This document shows positions 11,592 to 14,400 of a stretch of 30,395 bases of DNA, one piece after another. The DNA comes from a virus: UHGV virus genome UHGV-1557986, one strand, 5' to 3'. The notes beneath the pieces were generated by a model that made no database searches, had not been told where the DNA came from, and saw nothing but the letters and a program-made list of their open reading frames with translations. The translations under genes were made by a program, and so were the position numbers. The stretch's first letter is position 1. Every line of letters begins with the position of its first letter.

Positions 11592-11877
11592 TAGCACTCC
11601 ACCCAGGCGTGCTGAATGTCAGATATAATCGGCATACTCAAATCACTCCTAACGATATGAGTCATCACCAGAAAATCAGGATTAATGCGCCGGACTCTTC
11701 CCGGCTGTCACACCGAATCGCCAGGATGGTGAATCCCTTTACCCGAGAAACAACAAACGGTGGCTTGCACATTCCGGCTACCTGGTTCGTTGCCTGAGCT
11801 AGGGGCAAGGTTCCCCCCTTTTAACGTCACCAGACCGCTAACGACGCATGTGCCAGACGCCGTGTTACAACCAAATA

Positions 11878-12228: not shown

Positions 12229-12662
12229 TACAGATAATCTTCCACACGAAGACCTAAACGACGGCCTACTTCTTCCAGTACTTTGTGTTCTGCTGGCTCG
12301 ATTTCACCGTCCGCTTCTGCAATTGTCAGCATGTTAACGAATACTTCTTCCGCTTCTTTTGGATCGTTTTTGATATCTTCAATTTCGCGAAGGATATTCA
12401 TGCGACCAACACGGAAGCCAGCTTCCAGTTGCTCGGTAAAGCGGGTAATTGTTGCAGTAATTTCGTTACCAAAATGACTAAGACGCGGATTAGAGCGGAC
12501 AAGCTGATCAAGTTTCGCTGTTTCTTCTTTTTCGATTTCACCATCAGCGGCAGACACCAACAAACAGCCACCGATAATGGCCTCCATCAGATCGCGATTC
12601 TCAACTTTTTTCAGCTCTACTTTTGCAGAAGCGACTTTCTTGCCGAACAATTTACCGAACAT
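12228..12662 (-). CDS. TerB-like (tellurite-resistance TerB family) protein, 144 aa; candidate P1 TciA equivalent
   Basis: Two repeated ADGEIE(K/P)xE motifs separated by about 70 aa, as in TerB domains. Confidence 0.55.
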   Translation of the reverse strand: MFGKLFGKKVASAKVELKKVENRDLMEAIIGGCLLVSAADGEIEKEETAKLDQLVRSNPRLSHFGNEITATITRFTEQLEAGFRVGRMNILREIEDIKNDPKEAEEVFVNMLTIAEADGEIEPAEHKVLEEVGRRLGLRVEDYL

Positions 12663-12809
12663 TGGTTATCCCTCAATAAAAGTGACATATTTATTAGATT
12701 GCGGTGCCGGGTTCCTCCCGGTGTCCTTTGGCTGGTTATCCACCGTGGACGGGGAAACAAGGAGAAATGAATGGACTGATATAACCATTTCCCCGCGTGC
12801 GCTTAGCCG

Positions 12810-12897
12810 CATTCACCGCAACGGAAAGAGCATTCTTGGTGGACCTGTAGATTGGGATATGAACCCGTTACAGGAGAATGCTCTTACCTGTTACGTG
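12810..12897. repeat. tRNA-like palindromic element H1
   Basis: Arms CGCAACGGAAAGAGCATTCT / AGAATGCTCTTACCTGTTACG; loop contains GTAGATTGGGATATGAACCCGTTAC, whose reverse complement is T-arm-like (GGGTTCATATCCC). Confidence 0.5.
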
Positions 12898-13070
12898 CTC
12901 CGTTTCGTGGAGCTAACGGCGGGTGATCGGGCCGCACCAGACTGGACTTATTTCAGCGTTATGCTCATGCCAGAGAATCAAACTGTGATGGTCGGTGCTG
13001 AACTCCGACACAGGGTTGTAGCAAGCCCCGCAAAGCGCGCACTACTGTAGTTGCGGCACATCAGCCTGTG

Positions 13071-13173
13071 CATTCACCACAATGTTGAGAACACTGGTTG
13101 TCACGCTGCAACGCAACATTTATTCGTAGATTGGGATATGACCCCGTTACGCCAGTGTTCTCAACGTTGTAGT
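13071..13173. repeat. tRNA-like palindromic element H2
   Basis: Arms CAATGTTGAGAACACTGG / CCAGTGTTCTCAACGTTG (17/18 complementary); loop contains GTAGATTGGGATATGACCCCGTTAC, shared with H1. Confidence 0.5.
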
Positions 13174-13304
13174 GCCGGTTACGGTTCCGGCCAGGCCTCT
13201 TCCTCAACGGGGTGTTCTCCATACGGACTACCGTTTATTGGTCGTTCCTGCGGTTTATGTTGTGAAGCCAGATGCTTATCTTCTGGTTGCTTCAAAGAGC
13301 TGCA

Positions 13305-13386
13305 CTTCATCACAACGGTAAGAGCACTCGATGCATTTAAGCCAAGCTCCATAAGGGAGAATGCCCTTACCTGTTGTGTTGTGATG
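13305..13386. repeat. tRNA-like palindromic element H3
   Basis: Arms CATCACAACGGTAAGAGCACTC / GAGAATGCCCTTACCTGTTGTGTTGTGATG. Confidence 0.45.
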
Positions 13387-13499
13387 ACCGGTGCTGATCT
13401 CCGGCTTGCGGTTATTTCAGACTCTCACGGGCGTTTAATTGCCCCGCCGAACAGCTCTTTTCCGCAATAGCTGCAATGTCTTTCGCGCATCAGCCTGCG

Positions 13500-13593
13500 C
13501 ATTCATCACAACGGTAAGGGTACTTCGTAGGGATTCGAACCCTCTGCCAAGCTCGGCGATCTCCGACGTCGCAAAATACCCTTACCTGTTGTG
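13500..13593. repeat. tRNA-like palindromic element H4, abutting the 3' end of tRNA-Thr; contains a canonical T-arm sequence
   Basis: Arms CACAACGGTAAGGGTA / TACCCTTACCTGTTGTG; interior GTAGGGATTCGAACCCTC, whose reverse complement holds GGGTTCGAATCCC; no canonical acceptor/anticodon arms found. Confidence 0.5.
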
Positions 13594-13594
13594 C

Positions 13595-13670
13595 TGGTGC
13601 CGATTAACGGACTCGAACCGCTGACATCCTGCTTACAAGGCAGGCGCTCTACCAACTGAGCTAAACCGGC
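13595..13670 (-). tRNA. tRNA-Thr (anticodon TGT)
   Basis: Hand-folded: GCCGGTT acceptor, D-arm GCTC-AGTTGGTA-GAGC, anticodon arm CCTGC-CTTGTAA-GCAGG, T-arm AGCGG-TTCGAGT-CCGTT, CCA encoded. Confidence 0.85.
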
Positions 13671-13672
13671 AT

Positions 13673-13748
13673 TGGCGATGGTGAATGGATTTGAACCATC
13701 GACCCGTTGATTAACAGTCAACCGCTCTAACCGCTGAGCTACACCATC
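13673..13748 (-). tRNA. tRNA-Asn (anticodon GTT)
   Basis: Hand-folded: acceptor GATGGTG/CACCATC, D-arm GCTC-AGCGGTTA-GAGC, anticodon arm GTTGA-CTGTTAA-TCAAC, T-loop TTCAAAT, CCA encoded; 2 nt from tRNA-Thr. Confidence 0.85.
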
Positions 13749-13949: not shown

Positions 13950-14033
13950 AACGCAACAGGAAAGGACGCTGACCAACAGATGGCCCCTTCTCGTTCATCT
14001 GGTTAATCACACCAGCGCCCTTACCTGTTGTGC
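13950..14033. repeat. tRNA-like palindromic element H5 in the leader of the tRNA operon
   Basis: Arms CGCAACAGGAAAGG / CCCTTACCTGTTGTG, same arm family as H1-H4. Confidence 0.4.
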
Positions 14034-14400
14034 CTCCCCGTTCCCTAATACACAGACGGGGACACTCTGCGGTCGATTTTTTGACGGGGGACGACTCATA
14101 CCCCGTGGCATCTGGCTTCTTAGGCCGCTACCATCATAAGATCATCGTTTGCATTTACTTTAATGGTCAGTTTCTAAACCGCCGCAAAGTCGCTAACCAT
14201 GACGAAAACCCTGAAAAAAACGCCCACCCGAAGATGGGCAAACTGGAAGCTCGTAACGCACTTCGGCGTTGCCACTTAGGCGCATGGTCAACCTGGCAAC
14301 TCGGTGGTTTGTCTGGGAGGACTAGGCCCAGCCATGCTTACCGCCGCGCCTGTCGCGGCTAACAGCTAAATCGCTCTATAAATCACGATTCATTGAGGCG

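Follow-up and report, generated by a model that had tools for sequence, protein, structure and literature searches.

In the t-elements of plant mitochondria and the mascRNA of MALAT1, tRNA-like signals let tRNA-processing enzymes define the ends of mature RNAs. RNase P separates closely spaced tRNAs in the tightly packed tRNA operons of Escherichia coli, and it also processes the C4 RNA of phage P1. Here, we describe an RNA hairpin, H4, encoded on the minus strand of a 30,395-nt viral sequence, UHGV virus genome UHGV-1557986, which as a whole is called the window below. Over the 1.2 kb around H4, the sequence matches Escherichia phage P1 (OP279344) at 100% identity and further P1 records at 99%; the window is phage P1, and its minus strand is the C1-controlled ban operon. 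An earlier note on this DNA had taken H4 for a fourth tRNA gene that has decayed or been rearranged, or for a tRNA-derived processing element. We propose, with a probability of about 0.5, that H4 is a functional, conserved RNA hairpin in the untranslated leader of the ban transcript and would act as tRNA-like punctuation, a processing signal at which this transcript is cut by the mechanism set out below. It is likely that H4 is a working processing signal or a tRNA mimic rather than a dead tRNA gene.

The hairpin and its parts, with the adjoining tRNA gene, are as follows.

13507–13593, minus strand: H4 hairpin, 87 nt of RNA (minimum free energy −40.3 kcal/mol, z = −6.1)
13572–13593, minus strand: H4 5′ arm, CACAAC-A-GGUAAGGGUAUUUUG, with a bulged A at 13587 (folds and family covariation)
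13556–13572, minus strand: D-arm-like hairpin, GCGA-CGUCGGAGA-UCGC, 4 bp and a 9-nt loop with GG, invariant in 18 aligned members
13544–13555, minus strand: 12-nt linker, CGAGCUUGGCAG, replacing the anticodon arm and variable loop; variable in homologues except for ..GG.AG
13529–13543, minus strand: T-arm, AGGG-UUCGAAU-CCCU, with the signature U54, U55, C56, R57, A58 and the pair G53-C61, 1 nt from the 3′ arm
13507–13528, minus strand: H4 3′ arm, CGAAGUACCCUUACCGUUGUG, whose last 6 nt, GUUGUG, also serve S1, the following unit, as the 5′ strand of its closing stem (folds)
13595–13670, minus strand: tRNA-Thr(UGU), found by ARAGORN and by Rfam (72.9 bits), with its CCA end at 13595, 1 nt from H4

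H4 is 100% conserved in P1, D6, and SJ46. Its fold has a free energy of −40 to −45 kcal/mol with z = −5.6 to −6.1, and none of 200 shuffled sequences was equally stable. The hairpin had been placed one nucleotide past the tRNA-Thr CCA, and this is correct, with the CCA end at 13595 and the start of H4 at 13593. The stem, described as 16 perfect base pairs enclosing 54 nt, needs revision. On the plus strand the arms are 16 nt (13507–13522, CACAACGGTAAGGGTA) and 17 nt (13577–13593, TACCCTTACCTGTTGTG), and in the RNA the bulged A splits the stem into 6 bp and 10 bp, followed by about 6 inner pairs that include two U·G (GGGUAUUUUG/CGAAGUACCC). These inner pairs lengthen the helix to about 22 bp and leave about 42 nt enclosed.

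The canonical T-arm reported earlier is present, with the full T-loop signature, and there is indeed no anticodon arm, only an unpaired linker of 12–13 nt between the D-like hairpin and the T-arm; the D-arm-like hairpin itself had been overlooked. This hairpin is comparable to GCUC-AGUUGGUAGA-GAGC of the adjoining tRNA-Thr in the Rfam alignment, although its identification as a D-arm is by resemblance only, and its pairs never vary in the alignment of homologues. The T-arm has the features by which a tRNA T-arm is recognized (UUCRANY, G53-C61) and is invariant in homologues. The motif GGTTCRANYCC occurs four times in the 30-kb window, always on the minus strand (in three tRNAs and in H4), vs. 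0.25 expected by chance, a 16-fold excess. The top of H4 can be modelled as a tRNA mimic without an anticodon arm, with the D-arm-like hairpin and the T-arm in tRNA order. Since the T-arm would be stacked on the long helix that replaces the acceptor stem, a tRNA ‘elbow’ can form.

H4 is not itself recognized as a tRNA. The Rfam tRNA model RF00005 (gathering score 29 bits) gave no hit on 13500–13593 even at E ≤ 10, so that no covariance model scores H4 as a bona fide tRNA, and ARAGORN made no call on H4 alone at the default, 90, 80, 70, or 60% thresholds; a real or pseudo tRNA is not supported by these searches. At 80%, a ‘tRNA-Tyr’ call by ARAGORN includes the end of tRNA-Thr. When the H4 interior was aligned locally with 45 distinct phage tRNAs, only the 11-nt T-loop matched, with the 5′ part at the level of shuffled sequences. 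The comparison with phage tRNA genes, which the earlier note had proposed, thus bears out a clearly tRNA-like T-arm, beyond chance, and finds no similarity elsewhere in the interior; H4 is not a copy of the adjoining tRNA. Furthermore, it lacks a 7-bp acceptor stem and a free discriminator-CCA, as the helix is about 22 bp long and the bases past the seventh pair (C-CCU) are base-paired.

Other identities were tried and rejected as well. An Rfam scan at E ≤ 10 over H4 returned only ALIL and a plastid 3′-untranslated-region family, at 12–17 bits and far under their cut-offs, with no model hits on H4 for YrlA, C4, transfer-messenger RNA (tmRNA), or any other Rfam family. An antisense regulator finds no support, since the complementary 9–11-mers in the window number 13, with 10.7 expected, which is the level of chance. 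A resemblance of the common H 3′ arm, UGCUCUUU, to the antitermination site boxA was considered and dropped; that sequence is locked in a helix, and the arm of H4 (ACCCUUAC) does not contain it. An identity for alanyl-tRNA synthetase is likewise rejected, because the wobble at the equivalent of 3:70 is U·G, not G·U, and is not conserved (C-G in 13 of 53 stems). H4 is covered by no Rfam 15 family and is unannotated in GenBank and RefSeq, and our literature searches on P1 ban-operon RNAs, phage tmRNA-like genes, and tRNA-like prophage small RNAs (sRNAs) found nothing relevant.

How does H4 compare with the systems already described? Like the t-elements and mascRNA, it has an acceptor-like stem and a T-arm mimic, without a working anticodon arm, at the border of a mature RNA, which is the arrangement of tRNA-like punctuation. 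It differs in having a helix of about 22 bp instead of 7 bp, in lacking a discriminator/CCA context, and in its bacterial and phage setting; in our proposal, an RNase III step may also replace or precede that of RNase P. C4 of P1 and P7 and the CI RNA of P4 (RF01695) lie, like H4, in the leaders of repressor-controlled operons, C4 in the same phage. They have a terminal stem and variable internal loops, and they provide a precedent for the action of RNase P on a non-tRNA RNA of P1. However, their architecture is different, RF01695 gave no hit at E ≤ 10 on the H4 region, and antisense targets of the H4 interior are at chance level. By analogy, the closest functional counterparts of H4 would be the t-elements, mascRNA, and the RNase P-processed C4/CI RNAs of P1, P7, and P4.

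In the tRNA-like domain of tmRNA, as in H4, the T-arm stacks on an acceptor-like helix without an anticodon arm, and in many phages hairpins of the H4 class lie close to a tmRNA-like tag RNA described below. By contrast, H4 has no free 5′ or 3′ ends, CCA, or G3·U70, and the mRNA-like part lies beside it and is not nested within it, a topology unlike that of any known tmRNA. YrlA (RF02553) also combines a long terminal stem with a tRNA-like module that mimics the D- and T-arms, and it occurs in phages. However, its terminal stem extends from the position of the anticodon stem, whereas that of H4 extends from the acceptor position, and the stem sequences are unrelated; the model did not hit H4, and its only weak hit (23 bits, gathering score 69) spans two real tRNAs. 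STnc100 is presented in a preprint (bioRxiv 10.64898/2026.05.13.724894) as a prophage family of Hfq-type sRNAs related to PasD. The units beside H4, S1–S4, match the core of this family (33.9 bits) and share its prophage context, but H4 lies outside the Rfam model (RF02076), which hits S units only, and the H hairpin is not mentioned in the preprint passages found by term search.

The core of H4 is found in other phages. A search of IMG/VR with the pattern CGGAGATCGC, 8–20 nt, GGTTCGAATCC gave 115 loci and, among them, 49 distinct sequences; the core is carried by P1-like, lambdoid, and Uetakevirus-type phages, and BLAST located a further homologue in Enterobacter phage BUCT554. The core reads GCGAYGYCGGAGAUCGCC, a linker of 12–13 nt, and AGAGGGUUCGAAUCCCUAC, and it is held in at least five different outer stems, all compensated: the P1 type, the common CAYAACAGGUAAGAGCAUUG type, CCCACCAAUGAGAGCACUG/CAGUGCUCUCAUUCGUGGG, UAUUGGCGAGGAUACUG/CAGCGUCCUCACCAAUA, and GAAAUCCGGUAAGGGCAUUG/CAGUGCUCUUUCCAGUUUUC. 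Eighteen representatives were aligned, and of the 15 stem pairs that adjoin the core, 8 differ among them at both positions; the combinations seen at the two pairs closest to the junction are U·G, C-G, A-U, G-C and U-A, G-C, respectively. Because exact-match patterns were used to collect all sets of homologues, conservation in columns that a pattern fixes is circular, and contig counts are not independent events; near-invariance extends to the bases beside the fixed core parts (GCGAYGY, AGAG, CUAC). In lambdoid and other phages that have no nearby tRNA genes, the core is conserved and the stem shows compensatory changes. The H4 interior is a conserved module and not a decaying gene. A scan of genome contigs for the core returned one P1-like Escherichia contig and otherwise chance matches only.

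H4 is one of five hairpins in the region with the same arms, H0, H4, H3, H2, and H1. The other four are as follows.

13952–14032, minus strand: H0 hairpin, upstream of the tRNA pair (Rfam scan; repeat D2)
13311–13378, minus strand: H3 hairpin, with the arms of H4 and a different interior (repeat search)
13075–13174, minus strand: H2 hairpin, with 23-bp arms and an interior containing GGGGUCAUAUCCC, a variant of the initiator-tRNA anticodon arm (inverted repeat I1)
12817–12895, minus strand: H1 hairpin, with an interior containing GGGUUCAUAUCCC (repeat search)

IMG/VR was scanned for the junction of an H 3′ arm with the start of an S unit, which gave at least 120 loci, and the figures in this and the next two paragraphs are among the matches listed. 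A matching 5′ arm is present at 109 of these loci, in 76 distinct sequences. The stem, CACAAC-A-GGUAAGAGCAUUG/CAGUGCUCUUUCCGUUGUG, is conserved, and the interiors are hypervariable, at 29–170 nt with a median of 47.5. The 53 distinct arm pairs have 93.8% of cells paired, and 7 pairs change on both sides. The covariation score of these 53 stems is 0.238, vs. 0.115 for shuffled stems (0 of 500) and ≤ 0.07 after sliding of the partners; in this set, the search pattern fixed the lower 8 nt of the 3′ arm, and up to 2 mismatches were allowed over the first 12 nt of the 5′ arm. When read on the transcribed strand, the wobbles are 89 G·U or U·G and only 9 A·C or C·A. This asymmetry of 89:9 shows that the H fold belongs to the transcribed strand, and not to the DNA or to the opposite strand, on which plp and upl are annotated. 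RNase III needs about two turns of double-stranded RNA, and stems in the family are of that length, 19–23 bp, that of H4 having 22 bp with one bulge.

Parts of tRNAs recur in the H interiors. A strict search for a T-arm (4 bp, loop U[UG][CU]RAN[UC], 4 bp) found one in 13 of the 76 distinct hairpins, with 0.145 expected and at most 2 in any of 200 shuffles, an excess of about 90-fold. These hairpins belong to at least five unrelated interior classes, and in most of them the T-arm lies 1–4 nt from the 3′ arm, as in tRNA geometry. The full T-loop signature and G53-C61 are present in four of the five classes found by the scan, and the fifth (UGCGAUU) has G at position 55; the interiors of KP591P1 and Madison, which were found separately by BLAST, keep the full signature. 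T-arm interiors show no correlation with nearby tRNA genes (9 of the 13 without and 4 with). At 80%, two other H interiors were drawn by ARAGORN as complete cloverleaves; for one of them, the upper 7 bp of the H stem make up the acceptor stem. The Rfam tRNA model accepts none of the H interiors.

The commonest H interior outside P1 contains GGGCUCAUAACCC, an exact copy of the E. coli initiator-tRNA anticodon stem-loop, with the three G-C pairs and CAU; the initiator-tRNA sequence was checked in all 5426 E. coli genomes. This motif appeared in 0 of 300 shuffles, and the interior is seen at loci L044, L067, L074, and L083, among others. In P1, both H1 (GGGUUCAUAUCCC) and H2 (GGGGUCAUAUCCC) contain variants of it. 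Judging from the sequences, interiors of the H1/H2 type may mimic the initiator anticodon arm or act as a decoy for it. The H hairpins are a widespread, unannotated phage family that separates tRNAs, STnc100/PasD-like sRNAs, and a tmRNA-like tag RNA in early operons. The scaffold, a conserved stem with an interchangeable interior, appears to be so far undescribed.

The hairpins are packed with the S units without spacers. The four S units, which stand in tandem in the ban leader of P1 (window 12700–13512, minus strand), are as follows.

13378–13512, minus strand: S1, STnc100/PasD-like, closing stem GUUGUGAUGA/UCAUCACAAC (BLAST homologues)
13259–13316, minus strand: S2, a short S-like unit, closing stem GUUGUGAUGAAG/CUUCACAAC (sequence)
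12982–13083, minus strand: S3, STnc100-like (repeats D3 and D6)
12700–12820, minus strand: S4, the best match to STnc100 (RF02076; 33.9 bits, gathering score 47)

The S1–S4 closing stem is GUUGUGGUGAAU...CACCACAAC, and the units match the STnc100 core below the gathering score. An S unit that follows an H hairpin takes the first 6 nt of its closing stem, GUUGUG, from the 3′ arm of that hairpin, and the CACAAC at the end of an S unit coincides with the start of the next H. Spacing between tRNAs in the arrays is 2–6 nt, and 1 nt past the final tRNA of a block comes an H 5′ arm. The succession of tRNA-Thr and H4 is found in about 87 contigs, and in 27 contigs tRNA-Ser(UGA) is followed directly by another H. 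In phages other than P1, H arms likewise flank the tmRNA-like tag RNA. Lambdoid and Stx2 phages have a sequence 98.6% identical to S1 in their early-left operon, beside the repressor. Of 5426 complete E. coli genomes, 1060 contain S1, and it is annotated in none.

In the mechanism that we propose, the polycistronic ban transcript would be cut at the H hairpins. RNase III would cut within the H stem of about 22 bp, RNase P would take H4 for one more ‘tRNA’ of the array and cleave this tRNA-like hairpin at its base, or both would act. Only 1 nt separates the CCA from a stable helix, which leaves RNase E without a single-stranded AU-rich site, so a cut at the base of the hairpin or in the stem would be needed. 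This cut would free the 3′ end of tRNA-Thr, with exonucleolytic trimming to follow, and it would also release the downstream S unit with a 5′ GUUGUG able to pair with its own 3′ CACAAC, a pairing that would explain the uniform lower stem in all H hairpins. The apical tRNA-like piece of H4 may persist as a small stable RNA. The assignments to RNases rest on general knowledge of RNA processing in E. coli and not on data from the H4 locus. The second suggestion of the earlier note, a tRNA-derived processing element, fits the evidence; the D- and T-modules in tRNA order, the position in the tRNA array, and the membership in a unit-separating family agree with it, while the cleavage is what we infer.

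Several observations weigh against this proposal. Our searches found no cleavage or expression data for the H4 region. The stacked helix below the T-arm is about 27 bp, vs. 12 bp in tRNA, and there is no 3′ NCCA, so that H4 is not a standard substrate for RNase P. Most H interiors have no T-arm, and the tRNA-like part is therefore not needed for the function that is common to all H hairpins. The D-like and T stems of H4 show no variation in the alignment, in part because they were fixed by the search pattern, and so neither stem has support from covariation. Finally, RNase III has little sequence specificity and does not account for how strongly the lower stem is conserved in sequence; this conservation may be due to another binding partner or to recombination.

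The most serious alternative, although we consider it unlikely, is that H4 is a generic RNase III or structural spacer, with the tRNA-like interior as hitch-hiking cargo that is recombined between the arms and has no tRNA-specific role. The hypervariability of the interiors (76 distinct among the 109 instances listed), most of which have no tRNA feature, is what such a spacer would give, as is the movement of cassettes by arm recombination. A 196-nt segment, S1+H3, is absent from reference P1 and present here and in some P1 relatives, and it is bounded by a 13-mer direct repeat, CCGTTGTGATGAA, at 13502–13514 and 13306–13318. As this indel is bounded by the shared-arm repeat, the shared arms also act as recombination points. 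But the H4 core is near-invariant across distant phages while the flanking stems change, the T-arms are about 90-fold over shuffles, in tRNA geometry and in several unrelated interiors, and a different class of interiors reproduces the initiator-tRNA anticodon arm exactly. The recurrence of tRNA parts in H interiors points to selection for them. In other P1-like plasmids, tRNA-Ser(UGA) is found with a different H, tRNA-Arg replaces tRNA-Asn, or there is an extra tRNA-Tyr. Such array variants among P1-like elements are, as far as the sequences tell, cassette exchanges through the shared arms.

A bolder reading, which we regard as rather doubtful, gives the hairpins of temperate enterobacterial phages, P1 included, a role beyond processing. 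The locus would be an RNA island in which a conserved stem displays interchangeable tRNA pieces, the D-arm/T-arm elbow in H4 and, in the H1/H2 type, the initiator anticodon arm copied exactly or nearly so, beside the tag RNA. These pieces would manipulate host translation or ribosome rescue, or would be decoys for tRNA-targeting toxins or defence nucleases.

It is improbable that H4-class hairpins are the tRNA-like domain of the neighbouring tag RNA, forming with it a rearranged phage system like trans-translation or a mimic of one. The tag RNA is the following feature.

14070–14213, minus strand: tmRNA-like tag RNA, with the tag frame at 14120–14152, then a hairpin and pseudoknot (Rfam, ARAGORN, and covariation)

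The tag frame, GCA AAC GAU GAU CUU AUG AUG GUA GCG GCC UAA (ANDDLMMVAA*), has 10 codons and a stop in a tmRNA resume context, UAAAU|GCA, with no in-frame start codon. Eight tag variants are found in other phages (ANDEQFLAVA, ANEEMYLAVA, ANDDVVLMAA, and others), all of 10 codons and a stop. The hairpin and pseudoknot after the stop covary, with 97% paired and four of four pseudoknot pairs changing on both sides. The Rfam permuted-tmRNA model scores 26 bits on this RNA, under its cut-off. We found neither a tRNA-like acceptor end on the tag RNA nor any literature on it. An H4-class hairpin directly adjoins the tag RNA at 13 of 24 loci outside P1, and the two are within 650 nt of each other at 77 of the 77 P1-type loci with enough flank; in P1, the tag RNA is 560 nt upstream of H4. 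About 10 of 16 non-P1 tag RNAs are followed by a hairpin with a T-arm, vs. 13 of 76 for the listed H hairpins beside S units. A tRNA-like partner of this kind is nevertheless hard to reconcile with H4, which has no free acceptor end, no CCA, and, with the U·G at this position or C-G in 13 of 53 stems, no G3·U70. Moreover, the hairpin may be on either side of the tag RNA and is found without it at 11 of the 24 loci. No Rfam tmRNA model hits H4, and the ‘tmRNA’ that ARAGORN draws at relaxed thresholds uses other, unconvincing halves of a tRNA domain.

The proposal of a decayed or rearranged tRNA pseudogene is largely refuted, and we now rate it as very improbable. It has on its side the canonical T-arm, a D-arm-like hairpin in tRNA order, the position at the end of the tRNA array, and the turnover of tRNA content, with an extra tRNA-Tyr in the corresponding array of a related phage and tRNA-Ser, tRNA-Arg, or tRNA-Gly in others. 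Against this, there is no tRNA model hit (E ≤ 10), no ARAGORN call (60%), and no similarity beyond the T-loop, and the core is conserved with compensatory changes in phages that have no tRNA genes nearby. Scarcely credible is an action of H4 as DNA (a cruciform, a recombination site, or an element like a miniature inverted-repeat transposable element) or its membership in the opposite-strand plp/upl, for, although there are inverted repeats with conserved ends, an indel polymorphism between the arms, and the GenBank annotation of plp/upl, the wobbles are strand-asymmetric (89 G·U vs. 9 A·C), H is in fixed register with the adjoining RNA units and never dispersed, and the plus-strand open reading frames (ORFs) have no Pfam match, overlap tRNA-Thr, and are mostly unannotated elsewhere.

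If the H hairpins are processing signals, as we favour, this would explain how a single repressor-controlled transcript can yield both tRNAs and Hfq-type sRNAs, how units are shuffled between phages, with the shared arms as recombination linkers, and how the ends are formed of STnc100/PasD-type sRNAs, which occur in about 20% of complete E. coli genomes. If the tRNA-like interiors are mimics, they would be a new class of phage decoys made of tRNA parts, relevant to tRNA-targeting defence systems. On either reading, the H family merits an RNA-family model and a correction of the P1 annotation.

The annotation of the locus bears on these points. The order on the minus strand of NC_005856 is Pban, a ‘dicF-like region’, trnA (tRNA-Asn), trnT (tRNA-Thr), tciABC, trnI, and ban, with upl and plp as hypothetical ORFs annotated on the opposite strand between trnT and tciA. 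By both ARAGORN and Rfam, the window has just three tRNAs, each encoded on the minus strand. The remaining features are as follows.

13673–13748, minus strand: tRNA-Asn(GUU) (ARAGORN and Rfam)
13051–13470, 13439–13624, and 12577–13050, plus strand: plp/upl ORFs, antisense to the RNA array and overlapping tRNA-Thr

The plp/upl ORFs are disrupted or altered by the S1+H3 indel between P1 isolates and are left unannotated in most other records; here they are probably spurious and not genes. About 1.5 kb of the P1 ban operon leader, annotated as Plp/Upl, appears to be a dense array of structured RNAs. Between Pban and tciA, no promoter-like site was found on the minus strand, and the single strong terminator found is at 14221–14240, at the end of the dicF-like region, which is consistent with one long precursor. 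The annotated dicF-like region (14204–14305, minus strand) ends in this strong intrinsic terminator about 180 nt downstream of Pban. Because the terminator is upstream of the RNA array, transcription of the array needs read-through or antitermination. No N-like gene or nut site was identified.

Directly after tRNA-Ile2(CAU), just 3′ of trnI, is an element, GGUUGUAACACGGCGUCUGGCACAUG... (11847–11872, minus strand). In phages mEp460 and BUCT554, a matching sequence opens the early-left leader and lies upstream of the H hairpins. From this match, it may be a further shared leader RNA or an antiterminator-like element. One H hairpin of 209 nt, at locus L100, contains a hammerhead core (CUGAUGAGUCC...GGGACGAAAC, 2138–2184; Hammerhead_1, 24.7 bits, gathering score 34). 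At another locus, L104, an isrJ match (60 bits, over the cut-off) lies directly upstream of an H hairpin.

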